DNA of 64,000 nucleotides from Escherichia coli (GCF_024223415.1 NZ_CP100500.1), one strand, 5' to 3'. Positions 7,351-19,721 are shown, counted from the stretch's first letter. Notes: generated by a model from the letters alone, not told the origin. Translations and numbers: made by a program.

Positions 7351-8316
7351 ATGACAAAGTATGCATTAGTCGGTGATGTGGGCGGCACCAACGCACGTCT
7401 TGCTCTGTGTGATATTGCCAGTGGTGAAATCTCGCAGGCTAAGACCTATTCAGGGCTTGATTACCCCAGCCTCGAAGCGGTCATTCGCGTTTATCTTGAA
7501 GAACATAAGGTCGAGGTGAAAGACGGCTGTATTGCCATCGCTTGCCCGATTACCGGAGACTGGGTGGCAATGACCAACCATACCTGGGCGTTCTCAATTG
7601 CCGAAATGAAAAAGAATCTCGGTTTTAGCCATCTGGAAATTATTAACGATTTTACCGCTGTATCGATGGCGATCCCGATGCTGAAAAAAGAGCATCTGAT
7701 TCAGTTTGGTGGCGCAGAGCCGATAGAAGGTAAGCCTATTGCGGTTTACGGTGCCGGAACGGGGCTTGGGGTTGCGCATCTGGTCCATGTCGATAAGCGT
7801 TGGGTAAGCTTGCCGGGCGAAGGCGGTCACGTTGATTTTGCGCCGAATAGTGAAGAAGAGGCCATTATCCTCGAAATATTGCGTGCGGAAATTGGTCATG
7901 TTTCGGCGGAACGCGTGCTTTCTGGCCCAGGACTGGTGAATTTGTATCGCGCAATTGTTAAAGCCGACAACCGCCTGCCAGAAAATCTCAAGCCAAAAGA
8001 TATTACCGAACGCGCGCTGGCTGACAGCTGCACCGATTGCCGCCGTGCGTTGTCGCTGTTTTGCGTCATTATGGGCCGTTTTGGCGGCAATCTGGCGCTC
8101 AATCTCGGGACATTTGGCGGCGTGTTTATTGCGGGCGGTATCGTGCCGCGCTTCCTTGAGTTCTTCAAAGCCTCTGGTTTCCGTGCCGCATTTGAAGATA
8201 AAGGGCGCTTTAAAGAATATGTCCATGATATTCCGGTGTATCTCATCGTCCATGACAATCCGGGTCTTCTCGGTTCCGGTGCACATTTACGCCAGACCTT
8301 AGGTCACATTCTGTAA
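7351..8316 (+). CDS. glk: Glucokinase
   Basis: 321-aa ORF starting [21 protein letters not shown], the glucokinase N-terminus with its ATP-binding motif. Confidence 0.95.
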
Positions 8317-8534
8317 ATCCTTCCTGTTATATCGGGAGGTAACTCTCCCGATAATCTTTTAAATCATACAGTTAATTCAATTTTTCTTTGTGTCCCCTCA
8401 CAAGGCCGACCTGCGTCACACTTCCGTACAGCGGGATTAATTCTCCAGTAAATGCATTATTTGTCTGGTAACGGCGATTTGTTTTGCACGTTCATAATTT
8501 CACTCGTCAACTATCACTGAACGAGGAATTAACG

Positions 8535-8861
8535 ATGAGTAAGAAACTGATTGCCTTATGTGCCTGCCCGATGGGCCTGGCTCATACCTTTATGGCCGCT
8601 CAGGCGCTGGAAGAAGCAGCGGTAGAAGCCGGTTATGAAGTGAAAATTGAAACCCAGGGCGCGGACGGTATCCAGAATCGCCTGACGGCGCAGGATATCG
8701 CCGAAGCGACCATCATCATCCACTCCGTGGCAGTAACCCCGGAAGATAACGAACGTTTCGAATCACGCGATGTTTATGAAATCACTTTGCAGGACGCAAT
8801 TAAAAACGCTGCGGGCATCATCAAAGAAATCGAAGAGATGATTGCCTCTGAACAACAGTAA
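8535..8861 (+). CDS. fryB: PTS fructose-like IIB component FryB
   Basis: ORF 8484..8861; the 108-aa protein from internal Met MSKKLIALCACPMGLAHTF has the IIB Cys motif, and a GAGGA RBS precedes this ATG. Confidence 0.85.
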   Translation: MSKKLIALCACPMGLAHTFMAAQALEEAAVEAGYEVKIETQGADGIQNRLTAQDIAEATIIIHSVAVTPEDNERFESRDVYEITLQDAIKNAAGIIKEIEEMIASEQQ

Positions 8862-8882
8862 TATTCGACAGGGATAATTGTT

Positions 8883-10130
8883 ATGGCCATTAAAAAACGC
8901 AGTGCAACCGTTGTGCCTGGCGCATCCGGTGCGGCAGCGGCAGTTAAGAATCCGCAGGCCTCTAAAAGCAGCTTCTGGGGTGAACTCCCGCAGCATGTGA
9001 TGTCAGGGATTTCACGCATGGTGCCGACCTTAATTATGGGCGGTGTGATCCTCGCTTTCAGCCAGCTGATTGCTTATAGCTGGCTTAAAATTCCTGCTGA
9101 TATCGGCATCATGGATGCTCTTAATAGCGGGAAATTCTCCGGTTTCGACCTCTCCTTACTGAAATTTGCCTGGTTGTCGCAGTCCTTCGGCGGCGTGTTG
9201 TTTGGTTTTGCCATTCCGATGTTTGCTGCTTTTGTGGCGAACTCTATCGGTGGCAAACTGGCGTTTCCGGCTGGTTTTATCGGCGGCTTGATGTCTACCC
9301 AGCCGACGCAACTGCTGAACTTCGATCCCAGCACTATGCAATGGGCGACCTCTTCGCCGGTGCCGTCCACCTTCATTGGTGCGCTGATTATTTCTATCGT
9401 TGCCGGTTACCTTGTGAAATGGATGAACCAGAAAATCCAGTTACCGGATTTCCTGTTAGCGTTCAAAACCACATTTTTGCTACCGATTCTTTCCGCCATT
9501 TTTGTCATGCTGGCGATGTACTACGTCATCACCCCATTTGGTGGCTGGATCAACGGCGGTATCCGTACCGTGCTGACTGCCGCAGGTGAGAAGGGCGCGC
9601 TGATGTACGCAATGGGGATCGCCGCGGCGACAGCAATCGACCTTGGTGGCCCGATCAACAAAGCCGCAGGTTTTGTTGCCTTCAGCTTTACCACTGACCA
9701 CGTATTACCGGTCACCGCACGTTCTATCGCTATCGTTATTCCGCCGATTGGTCTGGGTCTGGCGACCATTATCGACCGTCGTTTAACCGGCAAACGCCTG
9801 TTCAACGCACAACTTTATCCGCAGGGTAAGACCGCGATGTTCCTTGCCTTTATGGGGATCAGTGAGGGTGCGATTCCGTTTGCACTGGAAAGCCCCATCA
9901 CCGCCATTCCGTCCTATATGGTCGGCGCGATTGTCGGCTCAACCGCCGCTGTCTGGTTGGGCGCAGTGCAATGGTTCCCGGAGTCCGCTATCTGGGCATG
10001 GCCACTGGTCACTAACCTCGGCGTCTACATGGCGGGGATCGCGCTGGGGGCAGTCATTACTGCGCTGATGGTGGTGTTCCTGCGTCTGATGATGTTCCGT
10101 AAAGGCAAATTGTTAATCGATAGCCTGTAA
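8883..10130 (+). CDS. fryC: PTS fructose-like IIC permease FryC
   Basis: 415-aa polytopic membrane ORF directly downstream of fryB. Confidence 0.85.
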
Positions 10131-10144
10131 GAAGGAAAATCCAG

Positions 10145-11230
10145 ATGACATTACTCGCTTCGCTGCGTGACTGGCTTAAGGCGCAACAACTGGATGCGGT
10201 GCTTCTCTCCTCACGGCAGAACAAACAGCCGCATCTGGGGATCTCCACCGGATCAGGCTATGTGCTGATTAGCCGTGAAAGTGCGCACATTCTGGTGGAC
10301 TCGCGCTATTACGCGGATGTAGAAGCCCGCACGCAAGGTTACCAGCTGCATTTGCTTGACGCGACGTACACGCTTACAACCATCGCCAGGCAAATCATTG
10401 CCGATGAGCAGTTGCAAACGCTCGGTTTTGAAGGCCAGCAGGTGAGTTGGGAAACCGCGCACCGCTGGCAGTCTGAACTCAATGCGAAACTGGTTAGCGC
10501 CACGCCGGATGTGCTGCGGCAAATCAAAACGCCAGAGGAGGTGGAGAAAATCCGCCTTGCCTGTGGGATTGCCGATCGCGGTGCAGAGCATATTCGCCGC
10601 TTTATTCAGGCGGGGATGAGCGAGCGCGAGATAGCCGCTGAACTGGAGTGGTTTATGCGCCAGCAGGGCGCAGAAAAAGCCTCTTTTGACACCATTGTTG
10701 CCAGTGGCTGGCGTGGGGCGCTGCCGCACGGCAAAGCCAGCGACAAGATTGTTGCAGCGGGCGAGTTTGTCACTCTCGATTTCGGTGCGCTCTATCAGGG
10801 CTACTGCTCTGATATGACGCGCACCTTGCTGGTGAATGGCGAAGGGGTGAGCGCCGAATCTCATCCGCTGTTTAACGTCTATCAGATTGTTTTGCAGGCA
10901 CAGCTCGCAGCAATCTCTGCAATTCGCCCCGGCGTGCGCTGCCAGCAGGTTGACGACGCCGCGCGTCGGGTGATTACCGAGGCAGGATTTGGCGACTATT
11001 TTGGTCACAACACCGGTCATGCTATTGGCATTGAAGTACACGAAGATCCGCGTTTTTCACCGCGGGACACCACGACGCTACAGCCAGGCATGTTGCTGAC
11101 CGTGGAGCCGGGGATTTATTTGCCAGGGCAAGGGGGCGTGCGCATCGAGGATGTTGTGCTGGTCACCCCGCAAGGCGCAGAAGTGCTCTACGCCATGCCG
11201 AAAACAGTGTTGCTCACGGGAGAGGCATAA
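10145..11230 (+). CDS. ypdF: M24-family Xaa-Pro aminopeptidase YpdF
   Basis: 361-aa ORF with a pita-bread metallopeptidase C-terminal region ([13 protein letters not shown]), in the ypdF position. Confidence 0.85.
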
Positions 11231-12267
11231 TGGATTTATCGCTATTGAAAGCGTTGAGCGAGGCAGATGCGATCGCCTCCTCGGAACAGGAAGTGCGGCA
11301 GATCCTGCTGGAAGAAGCGGATCGCCTGCAAAAAGAAGTGCGATTTGATGGGCTGGGATCGGTGCTGATCCGCCTCAATGAATCGACAGGTCCGAAAGTG
11401 ATGCTCTGTGCGCATATGGACGAAGTTGGATTTATGGTGCGCAGTATCTCCCGCGAAGGCGCAATTGATGTGCTGCCGGTTGGCAACGTGCGCATGGCTG
11501 CCCGCCAGCTGCAGCCGGTGCGCATCACCACCCGTGAAGAGTGCAAAATTCCAGGCCTGCTTGACGGCGACCGGCAGGGGAATGATGTCAGCGCCATGCG
11601 CGTGGATATTGGCGCGCGCTCGTATGACGAAGTGATGCAGGCGGGAATTCGTCCAGGCGATCGCGTCACGTTTGATACTACTTTTCAGGTTCTCCCTCAC
11701 CAGCGGGTGATGGGGAAAGCCTTTGATGACCGCCTCGGTTGCTACCTGCTGGTGACGTTACTGCGCGAACTACACAGCGCTGAACTGCCTGCGGAAGTGT
11801 GGCTGGTGGCCAGTTCCAGCGAAGAGGTGGGGTTACGCGGCGGGCAAACTGCCACCCGCGCGGTGTCGCCGGACGTCGCCATTGTCCTTGATACCGCCTG
11901 CTGGGCGAAAAACTTTGATTATGGCGCGGCTAACCATCGCCAGATTGGTAACGGCCCGATGCTGGTGTTAAGCGACAAGTCACTGATTGCGCCGCCAAAA
12001 CTCACCGCCTGGATCGAAACCGTGGCGGCAGAAATTGGCGTGCCGTTACAGGCGGATATGTTCAGTAACGGCGGCACGGACGGTGGAGCGGTGCACTTAA
12101 CCGGTACTGGCGTACCCGCAGTGGTGATGGGGCCTGCCACCCGCCACGGACATTGCGCCGCGTCGATTGCCGATTGCCGCGACATTTTGCAGATGGAGCA
12201 ACTTTTATCTGCCCTTATTCAACGTCTTACGCGTGAGACGGTTGTTCAACTGACGGATTTCAGATGA
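11230..12267 (+). CDS. ypdE: M42-family aminopeptidase YpdE
   Basis: 345-aa ORF; its start overlaps the ypdF stop (ATAATGG), in the ypdE position. Confidence 0.85.
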
Positions 12268-12291
12268 TCTCCTGATTAACCCGGAGCGGTT

Positions 12292-14787
12292 ATGTTAACG
12301 ATTCAATTTCTCTGTCCTTTGCCTAACGGTCTACATGCTCGTCCGGCGTGGGAACTTAAAGAACAGTGCAGCCAGTGGCAAAGCGAAATCACTTTTATTA
12401 ACCATCGCCAGAACGCAAAGGCCGATGCCAAAAGCTCGCTGGCGCTGATTGGCACCGGCACCTTATTTAATGACAGTTGCAGCCTGAACATTAGCGGCAG
12501 CGATGAAGAGCAGGCGCGGCGCGTGCTGGAAGAGTACATCCAGGTGCGCTTTATCGACAGCGACAGCATCCAGCCAACGCAGGCAGAACTGACGGCGCAT
12601 CCGCTGCCGCGTTCATTAAGTCGCCTGAACCCTGATTTACTGTATGGCAATGTGCTGGCAAGCGGCGTCGGTGTGGGGACGCTGACCCTGTTACAGAGCG
12701 ACAGCCTCGACAGTTACCGGGCGATCCCCGCCAGTGCGCAAGATTCCACCCGGCTGGAGCACAGCCTGGCAACGCTTGCCGAGCAACTGAACCAGCAATT
12801 GCGTGAGCGTGACGGCGAAAGCAAAACTATCCTCAGCGCCCATTTGTCGCTGATTCAGGATGATGAGTTCGCGGGCAATATCCGTCGCCTGATGACAGAA
12901 CAGCATCAGGGGCTGGGGGCGGCGATCATCAGCAATATGGAGCAGGTTTGCGCCAAACTTTCTGCTTCTGCCAGCGATTATCTGCGCGAACGTGTTAGCG
13001 ACATTCGCGATATTAGCGAACAGTTGCTGCATATTACCTGGCCGGAACTGAAGCCGCGCAACAATCTGGTTCTGGAAAAACCGACTATTCTGGTAGCCGA
13101 GGATTTAACCCCAAGCCAGTTTTTGAGCCTCGATTTAAAAAATCTTGCGGGCATGATTCTGGAGAAAACCGGGCGCACCTCGCATACCCTGATTCTGGCC
13201 CGCGCCTCGGCGATCCCGGTACTGAGCGGCCTGCCGCTGGATGCGATTGCCCGTTATGCCGGGCAACCTGCAGTGCTTGACGCCCAGTGCGGCGTGCTGG
13301 CGATTAACCCGAATGACGCGGTGAGCGGTTATTATCAGGTCGCGCAGACGCTGGCGGATAAACGCCAAAAACAACAGGCGCAGGCTGCCGCGCAGCTGGC
13401 TTATTCCCGTGATAACAAGCGTATTGATATCGCGGCGAATATTGGCACCGCTCTGGAAGCGCCTGGCGCGTTTGCCAACGGCGCGGAAGGCGTCGGGCTG
13501 TTCCGTACCGAAATGCTCTATATGGATCGCGACAGCGCGCCGGACGAGCAGGAGCAATTTGAAGCCTACCAGCAGGTGCTACTGGCAGCGGGCGACAAGC
13601 CGATTATCTTCCGCACAATGGACATCGGAGGCGATAAAAGCATTCCTTATCTGAATATTCCCCAGGAAGAGAACCCGTTCCTCGGCTATCGCGCGGTACG
13701 TATTTACCCGGAATTTGCTGGCCTGTTCCGCACTCAACTGCGGGCCATTTTGCGCGCCGCCAGTTTCGGCAACGCCCAGTTGATGATCCCGATGGTTCAC
13801 AGCCTCGATCAGATCTTATGGGTGAAGGGCGAGATCCAAAAAGCGATCGTTGAGCTTAAGCGCGATGGCCTGCGTCATGCAGAGACGATTACGCTGGGTA
13901 TCATGGTGGAAGTGCCGTCGGTGTGCTACATCATCGACCACTTCTGCGATGAGGTCGATTTCTTCAGTATCGGCTCCAACGATATGACCCAGTATCTGTA
14001 TGCGGTCGATCGTAATAACCCGCGCGTATCGCCGCTGTATAACCCGATTACGCCATCGTTCCTGCGCATGTTGCAGCAGATAGTTACCACTGCGCATCAG
14101 CGAGGCAAATGGGTAGGCATTTGCGGTGAACTGGGCGGTGAAAGCCGTTATCTGCCGCTACTGCTTGGGCTGGGCCTGGATGAGCTGAGTATGAGTAGCC
14201 CGCGCATTCCGGCGGTGAAAAGCCAGCTTCGTCAACTGGATAGCGAGGCGTGTCGGGAACTGGCACGTCAGGCGTGTGAATGTCGCAGCGCACAGGAAAT
14301 TGAAGCGTTACTCACCGCCTTTACGCCGGAAGAAGACGTTCGCCCGCTGCTGGCGCTGGAGAATATCTTCGTTGATCAGGCCTTTAGCAATAAAGAGCAG
14401 GCGATCCAGTTCCTGTGCGGTAACCTCGGCGTTAACGGGCGCACTGAACATCCGTTCGAGCTGGAAGAGGATGTCTGGCAGCGGGAAGAGATTGTCACCA
14501 CTGGCGTTGGTTTTGGCGTGGCGATCCCGCACACCAAATCTCAGTGGATCCGTCATTCCAGTATCAGCATTGCCCGGCTGGCGAAACCGGTTGACTGGCA
14601 GTCAGAAATGGGCGAAGTCGAACTGGTGATCATGCTGACGCTGGGTGCTAACGAAGGGATGAATCATGTGAAAGTCTTCTCGCAGCTGGCGCGTAAACTG
14701 GTGAATAAAAACTTCCGCCAGTCGTTGTTTGCCGCGCAAGATGCACAAAGTATCCTGACGCTGCTGGAAACAGAATTAACCTTCTGA
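12292..14787 (+). CDS. fryA: Multiphosphoryl transfer protein FryA (fused HPr/Enzyme I/IIA domains)
   Basis: 831-aa ORF containing an Enzyme I-like PEP-utilising region (GGRTSHTLILARA, GSNDMTQY motifs) plus additional PTS domains. Confidence 0.9.
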   Translation: MLTIQFLCPLPNGLHARPAWELKEQCSQWQSEITFINHRQNAKADAKSSLALIGTGTLFNDSCSLNISGSDEEQARRVLEEYIQVRFIDSDSIQPTQAELTAHPLPRSLSRLNPDLLYGNVLASGVGVGTLTLLQSDSLDSYRAIPASAQDSTRLEHSLATLAEQLNQQLRERDGESKTILSAHLSLIQDDEFAGNIRRLMTEQHQGLGAAIISNMEQVCAKLSASASDYLRERVSDIRDISEQLLHITWPELKPRNNLVLEKPTILVAEDLTPSQFLSLDLKNLAGMILEKTGRTSHTLILARASAIPVLSGLPLDAIARYAGQPAVLDAQCGVLAINPNDAVSGYYQVAQTLADKRQKQQAQAAAQLAYSRDNKRIDIAANIGTALEAPGAFANGAEGVGLFRTEMLYMDRDSAPDEQEQFEAYQQVLLAAGDKPIIFRTMDIGGDKSIPYLNIPQEENPFLGYRAVRIYPEFAGLFRTQLRAILRAASFGNAQLMIPMVHSLDQILWVKGEIQKAIVELKRDGLRHAETITLGIMVEVPSVCYIIDHFCDEVDFFSIGSNDMTQYLYAVDRNNPRVSPLYNPITPSFLRMLQQIVTTAHQRGKWVGICGELGGESRYLPLLLGLGLDELSMSSPRIPAVKSQLRQLDSEACRELARQACECRSAQEIEALLTAFTPEEDVRPLLALENIFVDQAFSNKEQAIQFLCGNLGVNGRTEHPFELEEDVWQREEIVTTGVGFGVAIPHTKSQWIRHSSISIARLAKPVDWQSEMGEVELVIMLTLGANEGMNHVKVFSQLARKLVNKNFRQSLFAAQDAQSILTLLETELTF

Positions 14788-14789
14788 CG

Positions 14790-15647
14790 TTAGCCCTGAA
14801 AACGGGCGCTGTACTCTCCCGGCGTCAGACCAAACTGACGCCGGAAAACGCGACAAAAATAGTCGCTATCCGGAAAACCGCAACGCTGTGCCACTTCATG
14901 AATTGACAGATGATATTTCTGCAAAATCATCCTCGCCTTCGCCATTCGCACCCAACGCACATACTCGATAAAACGCATCGTTCCATGCTGAGCAAACAGT
15001 TTTGACAGATGATTGGGCGTGATATTAAAAAACTGCGCCACGCTCTCGCGGGTGAGCGGCTGGGCATAATTATCCTGAACCCAGTTACAAATGCTGTGAT
15101 AGAGAAAATCGCCGCGCGGCTGCGAATTGCCCGGCGGCATATTCACCACGTTACGGCAAAGATGCAGCAAACTTAACACCAGCGGCTGAATGATATTTTG
15201 CTCCAGCGGCGAACGGCTAAGATGGGTGAGGGCGGTAAGCATCGCTTCACCTTCACCGCGTTGCAGGCTGGGAAGCTGGATCTGGCGAGCAGGATGCAAC
15301 AACGACGTGGTGCGGCTATCGTAAAACGATAACCCAAGCCAGGTCGGAGCGAACACCAGGCTTAACAGCATCACCGGTTTGTTGTTGACCGGTAAATTAG
15401 CCGCGCGTGCCGGAATAAACAGCATTTCTCCTTCCACCAAACGTTGCTGCTTTGCTTCCAGCAGATTGCCGTATTCGCCGCGCAGCACGATATCCAGACG
15501 GGGAAAATCAATACATAAACTGCCCACCGGCAACGAGGCAGGCTGGCTGGCAAACCAGACGCGCCCCAGTAGTTGCGGGTTAAGCACCAGGCCGCTGAAC
15601 AGATCGGCGAAAAATTGTTGATCGGCGGGCAAGCCTGGTGCTTTCAT
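14790..15647 (-). CDS. ypdC: AraC-family transcriptional regulator YpdC
   Basis: 285-aa ORF with a C-terminal AraC-type helix-turn-helix (HLSIHEVAQRCGFPDSDYFCRVFRRQFGLTPGEY). Confidence 0.85.
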   Translation of the reverse strand: MKAPGLPADQQFFADLFSGLVLNPQLLGRVWFASQPASLPVGSLCIDFPRLDIVLRGEYGNLLEAKQQRLVEGEMLFIPARAANLPVNNKPVMLLSLVFAPTWLGLSFYDSRTTSLLHPARQIQLPSLQRGEGEAMLTALTHLSRSPLEQNIIQPLVLSLLHLCRNVVNMPPGNSQPRGDFLYHSICNWVQDNYAQPLTRESVAQFFNITPNHLSKLFAQHGTMRFIEYVRWVRMAKARMILQKYHLSIHEVAQRCGFPDSDYFCRVFRRQFGLTPGEYSARFQG

Positions 15648-15659
15648 GAAAGTTCCCGA

Positions 15660-16412
15660 TTAAAGATGCATTAACTGGCGGAATTCTTTAACTTTGCTGC
15701 GGCTGACCGGCACTTCAAAATCCAGATCTTTCAGCCGCAGAATATAGGTGTTATTAAACCACGGTTCGATTTCGCGGATTTTGTTCAGATTGACACAAAA
15801 TGAGCGATGGCAGCGGAAAAAATGCGACGGCGGCAGTTTGCTGCAAAATTCGGTAATGTTCATCGGCATTACGTAGGATTCACGCCGCGTATAGACAAAG
15901 GTCATTTTCTCGTGCGCTTCGGCGTAATAGATATCGTTAATTGGCGTGACGATGATTCGCTCATCTTTCACCAGATTAATGGTGTCATTCTCACGCGTTA
16001 CCGTCGCGGCAGGCGTACTGCTGGTCTGCTGTTGCTGCCAGGCCGCTTCCAGTTTTTGCAGCATCCCGGTAATGCGTGACTCCTGATACGGTTTGAGAAT
16101 GTAGTCAAACGCCTCAAGTTCAAACGCTTCTACCGCATGTTCTTTCCACGCGGTGATAAACACAATAAACGGTTTATGTGCGAACTGGCTGATGTTTTGT
16201 GCCAGCAACACACCATCCAGCGACGGAATATTGATATCCAGAAAAATGGCGTCGACGCGGTTATGCTGCAAAAACTTCAACACGTCCAGACCGTCGTCAA
16301 AGGTGCCGACAATCTCCATCTGGCTGTGCTCTTTAATTAGCCAGCTCAGTTCCTGTTGTGCCAGGAATTCGTCTTCAACAATGATGACTTTCACAATATC
16401 ACTCCGGCTCAA
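15660..16412 (-). CDS. ypdB: LytTR-family response regulator YpdB
   Basis: 250-aa ORF with a receiver domain ([10 protein letters not shown]) and LytTR DNA-binding domain. The true start may be the GTG six codons downstream, giving the recalled 244 aa. Confidence 0.8.
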
Positions 16413-18106
16413 AGCAATAACGTAGCCTGTGAGGCGACTGGGGTGCGTTGGTTAGGAATGTAAAACGCAATTTCCGTTCCTGGTTCCAGGCGGCGGATAT
16501 GCAGCCCCTCGCCATACAATAACTTCACGCGATGATGGACATTCAGCAGGCCAATTTTATTGCCCGGCATTTCATTCGCTTCGACCCGCTCAATCACCTT
16601 TGGATCGATGCCGTGCCCGGTATCCCGCACCGCAATGCGTACCCGATTGCCGCACTCTGCAACGCTGATGGTGACAACGCCTTTACCTTTGCAAGGCTGG
16701 ATACCGTGGACAATGGCATTCTCCACCAACGGCTGGATCAGCAGGCTGGGAATGCAGCAATTCACCTCTTCATCAATATCATAGATAACCGTGAGCTTGT
16801 CGCCAAAGCGGGCCTGCTCAATGGCAATATAGTCTTTAATTTGATACAGCTCTTTTTTGATATCGATTTGCTCATCATCTTTTAATTCAATGTTATAGCG
16901 CAGATAACGCGACAGATTAAAGATCAGCTGGCGAGCGGTATCCGGATTCAGACGGATCGACGATGAAATAGCGTTCAGAGCGTTAAACAGAAAATGGGGA
17001 TTAATTTTGCTTTGCAGGGCGCGAAGCTCTGCCTTATTTGCCATTTCACGTAGCTGCTCGGCGCGTGAAACCTCCAGTTGCGTGGAGATGATTTGCGACA
17101 GACCAACCGCCATTTCCTGTAATGACGAGGTTATCTGATGCGCGTGGCAGTAGTAAATTTTCAGCGTTCCGGTCACAACGCCTTTCTCCCACAATGGGAT
17201 CACCAGCATGGAATGAATCTCTGGTGTGCGGTGGGCTTCATCATTGTTTTTAATGATGATTTTTCCGTAATTCATCGCCTGACGGGTAGTCGGGCTAATG
17301 AAGTCATCGCCATTCTGATAGTTATGTTCACCCACGCCAACATAGGCCAGCACATGATCGGTATTGGTAATCGCCACCGCATCGGCGTGAATGTCATCGC
17401 GAATAATTTCACAAACTTTGCGTAATGACTCGCTATTGACATGGCGAAACAGAGGTAGCGTTTTGTTGGCGATATCCAGCGCCAACTTGGCCTGCCGCGC
17501 GGCGCTGGCCTCTTTTTCGCCCTCAACGCTTTGCACCAGAAGCACAATAAAGCCGATACAGACGCTGCCGAGGATCATTGGAATCCCGATTTTAGAGACG
17601 ATATCGATCCCCAACGCGGTAGTTGGTGCCCAGACAATCACCAGAATCATGGTCAACGTTTCACACAACATGCCGCCGAGAATACCGACGCGCCAGCGCT
17701 GTGCTTTGGGGATTTTCAGGTTGATCCAGCCCGATATACAACCCGCCAGAATGCTGGTGATAAAGCAGGGGATCGCCGTCACGCCGCCGATATCAATTAA
17801 ATAACGATGAATACCCGCAATCACGCCGGTAATGATGCCCACCCACGGGCCAAACAGAATCCCGCCGGACATCACCGCGATAATACGTACGTTCACCAGC
17901 GAGCCTTCTACGGGAACGCCAGACCAGGTGCTGAACAGGGCGAACAGCGAGAAAATGGCGGTAACGGCGAGCAACTCTTTCGGTGAGTGTGCCGACTTGT
18001 GCAACAGTTCGCGAAACAGGCGGATACGGATGAGAAAGAACAGGCAGATAAGCATTAACGCTGCCCGATCGAAGACCGCCAGCAGCATGTTGAATATTTC
18101 GTGCAC
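16409..18106 (-). CDS. ypdA: LytS-type sensor histidine kinase YpdA
   Basis: 565-aa ORF with an N-terminal 5TM LytS-like membrane domain, a GAF-like region and a His-kinase/ATPase C-terminus; stop adjacent to the ypdB start. Confidence 0.85.
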
Positions 18107-18482: not shown

Positions 18483-19721
18483 ATGGCTGACACTCGCCCT
18501 GAACGTCGCTTTACGCGCATTGATCGTCTCCCGCCCTATGTTTTTAACATTACCGCTGAACTGAAAATGGCTGCGCGTCGGCGCGGCGAAGATATTATCG
18601 ATTTCAGTATGGGTAACCCGGACGGTGCGACTCCGCCGCATATCGTCGAAAAATTATGTACTGTGGCCCAGCGCCCGGACACGCATGGTTACTCCACTTC
18701 ACGCGGTATTCCGCGGCTACGTCGCGCCATTTCCCGCTGGTATCAGGATCGCTACGACGTTGAAATCGACCCGGAATCAGAAGCCATCGTCACTATTGGT
18801 TCGAAAGAGGGCCTGGCGCATCTGATGCTGGCGACACTGGATCACGGTGACACAGTGCTGGTGCCGAATCCAAGTTACCCCATTCATATTTACGGCGCGG
18901 TGATTGCCGGGGCTCAGGTACGCTCAGTGCCGCTGGTGGAAGGTGTCGATTTCTTCAATGAACTGGAGCGCGCCATTCGCGAAAGTTATCCGAAACCGAA
19001 GATGATGATCCTCGGCTTCCCGTCGAACCCAACCGCGCAATGCGTGGAACTGGAGTTCTTCGAAAAGGTTGTGGCGCTGGCGAAACGCTACGATGTGCTG
19101 GTGGTCCATGACCTGGCCTATGCGGACATCGTCTACGATGGCTGGAAAGCGCCGTCAATCATGCAGGTGCCAGGTGCACGCGATGTGGCGGTCGAGTTCT
19201 TTACGCTGTCGAAAAGCTACAACATGGCGGGCTGGCGTATCGGCTTTATGGTTGGCAACAAAATGCTGGTCAGCGCCCTGGCACGTATTAAAAGCTATCA
19301 CGATTACGGCACCTTTACGCCGTTGCAGGTGGCGGCGATTGCGGCACTCGAGGGCGATCAACAGTGCGTGCGCGACATTGCCGAACAGTACAAACGCCGC
19401 CGTGATGTATTGGTTAAAGGGCTGCATGAAGCGGGCTGGATGGTCGAAATGCCGAAGGCTTCGATGTATGTCTGGGCGAAAATACCGGAACCGTATGCTG
19501 CCATGGGCTCGCTGGAATTTGCCAAGAAATTGCTTAACGAAGCGAAGGTCTGTGTCTCTCCGGGGATTGGCTTTGGCGACTACGGTGATACGCATGTGCG
19601 CTTTGCACTGATTGAAAACCGCGACCGTATTCGTCAGGCGATTCGTGGGATTAAAGCGATGTTCCGTGCCGACGGTTTACTACCCGCCAGCAGCAAACAT
19701 ATTCACGAAAACGCGGAATAA
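18483..19721 (+). CDS. alaC: Glutamate-pyruvate aminotransferase AlaC (YfdZ)
   Basis: 412-aa class-I aminotransferase starting [23 protein letters not shown], with the PLP-lysine region [12 protein letters not shown]. Confidence 0.9.

Follow-up and report, generated by a model that had tools for sequence, protein, structure and literature searches.

The fry locus of Escherichia coli is a phosphotransferase system (PTS) operon in which two aminopeptidase genes are embedded, and it was analysed here in a window of 64,000 nucleotides (nt; GCF_024223415.1 NZ_CP100500.1). The 9-kb region around fry is 100% identical to E. coli chromosomes such as NCTC10444. Gene coordinates are those of the RefSeq annotation of the best-matching chromosome, transferred to the window, and the list of open reading frames (ORFs) was made from the window itself. 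Five genes follow each other on the plus strand: fryB (8535-8861), encoding a PTS enzyme IIB of 108 amino acids (aa) with a match to Pfam PF02302 (Lac/Cel-type IIB, 71 bits); fryC (8883-10130), encoding the enzyme IIC permease of 415 aa (PF02378, EIIC); ypdF (10145-11230), encoding an M24B Xaa-Pro-type aminopeptidase of 361 aa (PF00557 and PF01321, M24 and Creatinase_N); ypdE (11230-12267), encoding an M42 aminopeptidase of 345 aa (PF05343, 283 bits); and fryA (12292-14787), encoding a multiphosphoryl transfer protein of 831 aa with five Pfam domains.

An earlier reading of this DNA made from the sequence alone (the sequence-only reading) had named all genes correctly, each domain that it named being found by Pfam. 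It had also described the five fry genes as co-oriented and closely packed, as they are, with gaps of 21, 14, -1 and 24 nt. Its limits for the region were less exact. The start given, 8484, corresponds to a TTG that opens the longest ORF; the annotated fryB ATG is at 8535 and has a GAGGA Shine-Dalgarno sequence just 5' of it. The end, 16412, is the longest-ORF start of the neighbouring gene ypdB, and ypdA falls beyond it. In matching genomes the gene at 12292-14787 is named "ptsP: phosphoenolpyruvate--protein phosphotransferase" by RefSeq/PGAP. The K-12 name is fryA. The name ptsP misleads here, since it properly belongs to another gene, that of EI-Ntr.

Organization and conservation of the fry operon

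A terminator-like hairpin on the plus strand (8330-8353; 10-bp stem with five G-C pairs, followed by ATCTTTTAAA) lies just 3' of the stop codon of glk, the preceding gene (7351-8316, plus strand, placed by RefSeq mapping), and marks the upstream limit of the fry unit. The 181-bp spacer that follows (8354-8534, plus strand) is the presumed fry promoter region and is AT-rich, with a G+C content of 0.41 over 8317-8534. It contains a CRP-like site, TTTGTGTCCCCTCACA (8387-8402), with two mismatches to TGTGA-N6-TCACA, and fryB is among the CRP targets found by genomic SELEX (systematic evolution of ligands by exponential enrichment; PMC3105977). A purine-rich ribosome site precedes each of the five starts. 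The ypdF stop and the ypdE start overlap in TAATG, so placed that the junction is predicted to be translationally coupled. The description of the peptidase genes as embedded in the operon is borne out by the gaps of 14, -1 and 24 nt around them, which leave little room for promoters of their own. A promoter and terminator scan inside the operon gave counts equal to the shuffled expectation, with no hint of a promoter specific to the peptidases, and was informative solely on the glk terminator. In the literature fryBC-ypdF-ypdE-fryA is treated as a single transcription unit and ypdA-ypdB-ypdC as another (PMC2731931), and from the gene arrangement we infer co-transcription of the five genes.

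FryA carries HPr, EI-N, mobile, PEP-binding and EIIA_2 domains, in this order, in a single chain (EI, enzyme I; PEP, phosphoenolpyruvate). The phospho-histidines are H15 in HPr (GLHAR), H298 in EI (GRTSHT) and H747 in IIA (VAIPH). With HPr, EI and IIA fused and a phospho-histidine in each, the protein belongs to the PTS multiphosphoryl transfer proteins of the FryA/PtsA type. The phospho-accepting Cys11 of FryB lies within CPMGLAHT, and the cysteine is invariant in 73 related IIB genes. By this phospho-cysteine motif and the EIIA_2 phospho-histidine, FryB and the IIA domain of FryA are members of the Fru family (TC 4.A.2).

The permease is less easily placed within this family. FryC scores 51.8 bits against PF02378 (cut-off 30.7) and 157.5 bits against the fructose-IIC model TIGR01427, which is at the threshold (cut-off 157.55), and falls far under every cut-off of the E. 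coli equivalog models. Its identity to E. coli FruA, FrwC, MngA and FrvB is 27-29%, and at E<=1e-30 only 54 cluster representatives out of 1.84 billion were found. These values suggest that FryC represents a rare subclade of the Fru family. No fruK-like 1-phosphofructokinase gene was found in the window by ORFs, annotation or Pfam, and the identity between FryC and FruA is 27%; the label "fructose-like" has family membership as its sole support.

Both peptidases are near-identical to solved structures, YpdF to 5CNX ("Aminopeptidase YpdF") and YpdE to 1YLO (the Shigella orthologue). YpdF combines Creatinase_N with a pita-bread domain and has the Asp, Asp, His, Glu, Glu set of the M24B family in the motif residues D212, D223, H292, E321 and E335, which are invariant in 50 PTS-linked M24 genes. 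YpdE has the M42 fold and the two-metal set His, Asp, Glu-Glu, Asp, His, with the motif residues H62/D64, D166-D167, E198-E199, D221 and H308 invariant in 36 PTS-linked M42 genes. In both proteins we take these residues to be the metal ligands, as is known for the two families. Neither protein has a signal peptide, and YpdF is cytoplasmic. YpdE and YpdF have been described as general aminopeptidases, and a dodecamer assembly of YpdE has been mentioned as unpublished data (PMC3511314).

The embedding of peptidases in a PTS operon had been considered unusual, a description that does not hold. Each of the three M42 genes of E. coli K-12 lies in a PTS operon (ypdE; frvX in frvABXR; sgcX in sgcXBCQAER), YpdE being 35% identical to FrvX and 31% to SgcX, and the PTS-M24-M42 order recurs in Clostridia. 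The particular features of fry are the pair of M24 and M42 genes plus the dedicated HPr-EI-IIA protein.

The fry region is found in 5424 of 5426 complete E. coli genomes. All five ORFs have the same length as in K-12 MG1655, and the ratios of nonsynonymous to synonymous divergence (dN/dS) from that strain are 0 for fryB, 0.028 for fryC, 0.079 for ypdF, 0.047 for ypdE and 0.023 for fryA. The five genes are under purifying selection. A ypdE deletion in UTI89 gave a competitive index of 0.30 in the mouse bladder (PMC8767336). A 48-bp in-frame deletion in fryA was associated with better growth on LB plates after prolonged LB culture, and on glucose minimal plates the fryA deletion made no difference to growth (PMC5364489). 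The two published phenotypes are circumstantial as support for a functional module, and they argue against an inert locus. The term "cryptic", if it is taken to mean decaying, is thus at odds with dN/dS values of 0-0.08, intact ORFs and the fitness loss of the ypdE mutant; "orphan" fits better.

Some allelic variation is present in the peptidase genes. An 81-bp in-frame deletion allele of ypdE (11443-11523, codons 72-98), lying between two VR repeats and removing 27 residues, is found in many draft E. coli/Shigella assemblies, in protein clusters of 318-319 aa (e.g. P0032, 157 contigs), and in <1% of complete genomes; the window has the full-length allele. Synonymous divergence (dS) from K-12 is 0.155-0.165 in ypdF and ypdE, 0.06-0.09 in glk, fryB, fryC, ypdA and ypdB, and 0.005 in ypdC. 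A 201-bp segment of ypdE is 90-95% identical only, in 1811 of the 5389 matching records. The divergence pattern over ypdF and ypdE (10145-12267) looks like a mosaic of recombined alleles. In Escherichia sp. MOD1-EC7003 (L017, ~12.3-13.4 kb) the ypdE homologue consists of two tblastn segments (81% and 98%) with an ORF of 219 aa, and is probably a copy disrupted in that lineage.

Relatives of FryC and the regulators that accompany them

One genome per species was scanned with a FryC alignment, which gave 80 loci with 10-kb flanks. Their genes were labelled by tblastn with reference proteins and the labels were checked with Pfam and NCBIfam. The loci fall into five types. Type E (26 loci; FryC identity 73-99%) is found in Enterobacterales, namely Escherichia, Citrobacter, Salmonella arizonae/diarizonae, Superficieibacter, Pseudocitrobacter, Enterobacter, Hafnia, Serratia, Huaxiibacter and Pluralibacter, and has the order IIB-IIC-M24-M42-(HPr/EI/IIA) with a convergent AraC gene. 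Type A (13 loci; 59-67%) is found in Firmicutes (C. asparagiforme, Enterocloster, Breznakia, Caproiciproducens and Lachnospiraceae) with the order PRD regulator-IIA-IIB-IIC-M24-M42-PatB. Type B (52-60%) comprises eight loci in Clostridia and Negativicutes, with a PepV-like M20 gene, a regulator and IIA-IIB-IIC-M24-PatB, and four loci in Rahnella and a related Enterobacterales bacterium, with M20-IIB-IIC-M24 and no PatB; in all 12 the M20 dipeptidase replaces M42, and in Rahnella a LacI-family regulator lies upstream. Type C (17 loci; 48-61%; Leptotrichia, Sebaldella, Streptococcus suis, Anaerococcus and others) has IIA-IIB-IIC-GH38, and type D (12 loci; 37-41%; Bacillaceae and Paraclostridium) has RpiR and IIABC-GH38-GH13, with glycerate kinase in six.

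Peptidases and GH38 occur together in none of the 80 loci, and 29 loci have GH38 and no peptidase. GH38 was also the partner in those of the first relatives examined that were 39-44% identical to FryC, all with a GH38 alpha-mannosidase alongside, most with GH13 in addition and two with glycerate kinase. The IIB-IIC-M24-M42 order is common to Enterobacterales and Clostridia at 40-67% protein identity. In C. asparagiforme the M24 protein scores 323 bits against YpdF (5CNX) and 290 against a Bacillus structure, and the M42 protein 263 bits against the YpdE orthologue (1YLO) and 195 against a Bacillus structure; both are closer to the fry peptidases than to the Bacillus proteins, so the cassette has been passed on as a block.

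The phylogenetic tree of the IIC domains, a bootstrapped neighbour-joining tree and thus distance-based and not maximum likelihood, gave 100% support for types E, A, B and C together, 100% for type D, and 100% for the split of both from the E. coli paralogues. As monophyletic groups type E had 100% and type A 97%. Some positions partly discriminate between peptidase-linked and GH38-linked permeases, such as FryC 245 (G/A versus V/I/L) and 344 (S/A/C versus L). As partial discriminators only, they are at most suggestive of a roomier pocket.

A PatB/MalY-family lyase is encoded in 21 Firmicutes loci, and in neither the window nor any of the 26 enterobacterial loci. The PatB-family assignment is based on TIGR04350 (cut-off 340 bits), with scores of 345 and 342 bits. 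The M20 partner is a PepV/Sapep-family protein, and its match to the Cys-Gly-3M3SH dipeptidase model is below threshold (195 bits, cut-off 1025). The sole recurrent sugar-phosphate enzyme among the 25 non-enteric peptidase-type loci is type I phosphomannose isomerase. Its gene is located directly 3' of PatB in L047, L050 and L059, precedes the cassette and is read from the other strand in L069 and L089, and is present as a weak match in L045; by our own estimate about 0.2 of the 25 loci would be expected by chance, the loci not all being independent. RidA is encoded near two type A loci.

Three neighbourhoods stand somewhat apart. A metagenome contig (L003, Logan SRR30067240; 313-7936) encodes RidA, an alanine-dehydrogenase-like protein, RpiR, a fused IIABC, M24, M20 and a PatB-like class I-II aminotransferase, so that three enzymes concerned with 2-aminoacrylate, pyruvate and alanine lie next to a PTS. 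Its IIABC is about 53-54% identical to FryC and its M24 only 28% to YpdF. In C. asparagiforme (L044) the cassette, in which the PatB homologue occupies 13349-14536, is directly followed (14658-17333) by a gene for an 891-aa LevR-like sigma-54 activator with PRD and EIIA-Man domains, which probably belongs to the next PTS locus. Beside the Rahnella cassette an argininosuccinate-lyase-like gene was considered as a substitute for PatB and rejected as flanking synteny, with a LysR-type regulator and a pyridine-nucleotide oxidoreductase nearby. This neighbourhood resembles that of argH-oxyR-sthA in E. coli.

In the window, fryA is followed by ypdC (14790-15647), which encodes an AraC-family regulator of 285 aa (Pfam HTH_18 and HTH_AraC), ypdB (pyrR; 15660-16394), a LytTR response regulator by Pfam and PyrR in the K-12 annotation, and ypdA (pyrS; 16409-18106), a LytS-type histidine kinase by Pfam (5TMR-LYT, GAF, His_kinase and HATPase_c) and K-12 annotation. 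The sequence-only reading had this succession right and omitted that all three genes are read from the minus strand and so converge on fryA. The next gene is alaC (18483-19721, plus strand, RefSeq mapping). The stops of fryA and ypdC (14785-14792) are 2 bp apart, TGA-CG-TTA, with no intergenic space for terminators, so that transcripts from each side must enter the opposite gene.

Of the 23 enterobacterial loci long enough to tell, 22 have the convergent AraC gene next to the fryA homologue, and these represent more than one insertion site. Ten of the 23 have ypdAB alongside, and 14 have glk. The loci of Salmonella, Enterobacter, Hafnia and Serratia retain the cassette and ypdC and do not have ypdAB. 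Because of this co-occurrence YpdC is likely to be the cognate regulator of the fry cassette and YpdAB a mere neighbour; ypdC is co-inherited with the structural genes, as would be expected in an AraC/XylS-regulated catabolic operon. YpdAB is a pyruvate sensor with yhjX as its target and is absent from Salmonella (PMC5552118), and both this known target and the adjacency in only 10 of 23 loci led to its rejection as a fry regulator. The two-component system had been described as flanking the operon; this is true of the window, where it is adjacent, and it does not travel with the cassette as ypdC does. In E. coli ypdC lies 12 nt 3' of ypdB, and the ypdAB promoter may govern its expression.

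The travelling unit accordingly has six genes, fryB-fryC-ypdF-ypdE-fryA plus ypdC, which are found at different chromosomal sites across genera. From fryC to ypdC the G+C content is 0.53-0.58, and in fryB 0.505, compared with 0.484 for the whole window. The varied insertion sites and the raised G+C make the cassette look mobile, and the G+C content together with the different chromosomal site in Enterobacter-type genomes is consistent with an old horizontal acquisition. In these Enterobacter-type loci dcuC and an RNase T2 gene lie upstream of fryB in place of glk; they were considered as possible operon members and rejected as flanking synteny.

Substrate of the fry system and competing explanations

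That the substrate is not established, as the sequence-only reading held, is stated explicitly in a paper from 2017 (PMC5364489). The literature searched yielded nothing later, and no defined substrate for fry, frv, sgc or the clostridial cassettes. For the accompanying idea, that a sugar is joined to an amino acid or a peptide in the substrate, the census provides comparative support and no proof.

The reading that we prefer, and to which we would give an even chance, is that fry, as a horizontally mobile six-gene module, encodes a self-contained PTS for conjugates of mannose with an amino acid or a peptide, which are phosphorylated as they enter and are then trimmed by YpdF and YpdE. Phosphate would pass within FryA from PEP to His298 of EI, His15 of HPr and His747 of IIA, and then to Cys11 of FryB; these steps are proposed because of the domain architecture and the intact phosphorelay residues. 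The substrate class, the role of YpdC and every step from import onward are what we infer. FryC would import the cargo, which would be phosphorylated on a sugar hydroxyl. In this cargo a hexose, with mannose the likeliest, would be joined to an amino acid or a short peptide, as in an O-mannosyl-Ser/Thr peptide. YpdF, of the Xaa-Pro type, and YpdE would trim its N-terminal aminoacyl residues in the cytoplasm. A pyridoxal phosphate (PLP)-dependent lyase of the PatB family would in the clostridial versions split the remaining glycosyl-amino acid by beta-elimination, and at some clostridial loci phosphomannose isomerase would complete the route to fructose-6-phosphate, feeding glycolysis. The lyase and isomerase steps in E. 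coli would use enzymes encoded elsewhere; it may be speculated that MalY or MetC could supply the final cleavage.

Three features of the census argue for this scheme. The peptidases would belong to the fry pathway because the gene order survives across phyla, the ligands are invariant and GH38 replaces the peptidases where these are absent. The transported sugar is probably mannose, because GH38 is the alternative partner and phosphomannose isomerase the sole recurrent sugar-phosphate enzyme. For the aglycone a beta-substituted amino acid is probable, because a PatB/MalY-family C-S lyase is encoded in the cassettes and RidA near two of the type A loci; RidA clears enamine products of PatB-type lyases. 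A more specific version, possible although we think it rather unlikely, is that the fry-type cassettes are the first PTS pathway for O-mannosylated Ser/Thr, taken up free or as short glycopeptides, e.g. from yeast or actinobacterial mannoproteins. The mannose would be phosphorylated during import and the peptide shortened by the M24 and M42 (or M20) peptidases. The clostridial PatB would then release mannose-6-phosphate from the glycosylated amino acid by beta-elimination, as a glycan-releasing lyase, not a glycosidase, and RidA and phosphomannose isomerase would clear the products.

Several observations weigh against a conjugate as cargo. In the papers searched, none of the members of the FryC clade has been given a substrate or an inducer or been shown to transport anything, and we know of no precedent for PTS uptake of a conjugate with an amino acid or a peptide. 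YpdE and YpdF are said to have been found by Zheng et al. in 2005 to cleave ordinary peptides in vitro, and glyco-conjugates need not be among their substrates. Neither a lyase nor a glycosidase to free the sugar phosphate is encoded in the E. coli operon, and the pathway is incomplete there. Phosphomannose isomerase is found at only six of the 25 non-enteric peptidase-type loci, some of them closely related. Finally, the peptidase-linked and GH38-linked permeases are interleaved in the IIC tree and do not form two clades; it follows that partners were exchanged repeatedly, and that the aglycone cannot be deduced from the permease by itself.

A different cargo would be an aminoacyl-amino-sugar or a like amide (for example the bacillithiol-like Cys-GlcN-malate, or an aminoacyl-hexosamine glycoside), with the peptidases acting as amidases on the phosphorylated amino sugar. 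Aminopeptidases of such families accept non-peptide leaving groups, the sister permeases are paired with GH38 of the mannosylglycerate type, i.e. for a hexose glycoside of a small acid, and the pairing of a PepV/Sapep M20 peptidase with the PatB C-S lyase fits cysteine conjugates, the match to the Cys-Gly-3M3SH model being sub-threshold. However, phosphomannose isomerase beside PatB points to mannose-6-phosphate and not to a hexosamine phosphate, and no deacetylase, deaminase or amino-sugar glycosidase recurs in the 25 non-enteric peptidase-type loci, and we regard an amide of this kind as improbable. The same is true, and we would say decidedly so, of an ordinary fructose-like or mannose PTS that happens to contain two housekeeping peptidase genes with no functional tie to the sugar. 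Databases do label the system "fructose-like", its peptidases are reported as general aminopeptidases (PMC3511314), and the operon has no sugar-releasing enzyme for conjugates. Such an explanation leaves the IIB-IIC-M24-M42 order, kept from Enterobacterales to Clostridia at 40-67% identity, unaccounted for, as well as the mutual exclusion of peptidases and GH38 beside closely related permeases and the apparently coupled ypdF/ypdE junction. It would also require an operon without FruK or any other sugar-phosphate enzyme, and a permease that shares 27-29% with the E. coli Fru-family permeases and lies at the TIGR01427 cut-off.

Alternatively, FryA could be an alternative form of Enzyme I in a regulatory phosphorelay that signals the carbon or nitrogen state, e.g. 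via peptidase activity, with FryBC vestigial. It is a complete stand-alone relay, other non-transporting PTS branches exist in E. coli (PtsP-PtsO-PtsN and DhaM), and the phenotype of the fryA deletion was seen in peptide-rich LB. This is very improbable, given that strong purifying selection acts on an intact FryC (dN/dS 0.028), and that clostridial cassettes without an EI/HPr fusion retain IIA-IIB-IIC and the peptidases; the conserved core is therefore the permease with the hydrolases. The locus could also be a decaying cryptic remnant, held by linkage to glk and the ypd genes, as the lack of a known inducer, the ypdE deletion allele in draft assemblies and the high dS of ypdF and ypdE might suggest. 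We find this scarcely credible for a region with five full-length ORFs and invariant catalytic residues that is present in nearly all complete genomes, where the deletion allele is below 1%, and in which loss of ypdE lowers fitness in vivo; a pseudogene or decay reading was rejected on the basis of dN/dS, ORF integrity and the rarity of that allele.

Known systems and significance

The operons frvABXR and sgcXBCQAER resemble fry as orphan PTS operons with an embedded M42 gene ("aminopeptidase/cellulase-M-like"). They differ in having neither an M24 gene nor an EI/HPr fusion, FrvB being 27% identical to FryC, and the sgc locus has sgcE (a putative epimerase) and sgcQ. The sgc operon was still called uncharacterised in 2026, with a role in pentitol-related carbohydrate metabolism suggested (PMC13343008). 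FryA has its counterpart in E. coli PtsA: both are ~830 aa and align end to end at 45% identity, which implies the same fused HPr/EI/IIA make-up, and FrwB is 46% identical to FryB. The frw locus, unlike fry, contains pflCD-like genes and no peptidases, and FrwC shares 29% with FryC.

The logic proposed for fry, i.e. import, phosphorylation and cleavage in the cytoplasm, is that of the Fru-family PTS for mannosylglycerate, MngA, with the GH38 alpha-mannosidase MngB. MngB splits the phosphorylated cargo in the cytoplasm, giving mannose-6-phosphate. However, no GH38 gene is found in the window or in any of the 26 enterobacterial loci. E. coli MngA was considered as the closest characterised relative of FryC and rejected, with 27% identity and a bit score under that of FruA; the likeness is to the GH38-linked permeases of other phyla. 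The nearest relatives of FryC that lack peptidases (48-64% identity) are IIA-IIB-IIC loci with GH38, among the GH38-linked PTS loci of Firmicutes and Fusobacteria; the IIABC-GH38-GH13 loci, half of which have glycerate kinase, are more distant (37-41%). In contrast to these, the hydrolases of fry are two metallo-aminopeptidases, which implies an amide-linked and not a purely glycosidic partner.

The thioalcohol pathway of Staphylococcus hominis is similar to the M20-type relatives of fry in combining an M20 dipeptidase with a PatB C-S lyase. In this cysteine-conjugate pathway the peptidase acts first and the beta-lyase second. It differs in using a peptide transporter, with no PTS and no sugar involved, and the E. 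coli operon has neither M20 nor PatB. Sugar-amino acid compounds are imported by the frl, gfr and fra systems (Amadori/Heyns compounds) and by Salmonella dga (D-glucosaminate), in the case of gfr and dga by a PTS, and in dga a PLP-dependent lyase acts on the phosphorylated product. These systems differ from fry in having Man-family PTS or non-PTS transporters, SIS-type deglycases or kinases, and no M24 or M42 peptidases; neither a SIS enzyme nor a kinase was found in the fry cassettes by Pfam or tblastn labels.

The locus is a known one, and the sugar-peptide idea is strengthened here and unproven. What is new is comparative: the inclusion of ypdC and the exclusion of ypdAB, the cross-phylum cassette with PatB and phosphomannose isomerase, and the peptidase-or-GH38 relation. 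The census narrows the candidate substrates to mannosyl-Ser/Thr and their Pro-containing peptides, yeast mannoprotein digests and aminoacyl-hexosamines, and the candidate regulator to YpdC. Few PTS systems of E. coli K-12 still lack an assigned substrate, and fry is one of these; structures are available for two of its proteins. Should fry prove to import a sugar joined to an amino acid or a peptide, the chemical range of the PTS would widen, and the presence of M42 "aminopeptidases" in PTS operons of E. coli, Clostridia and elsewhere could be explained. Such a conjugate would also represent a nutrient niche for colonisation of the gut or bladder, given the defect of the ypdE mutant in the mouse bladder.

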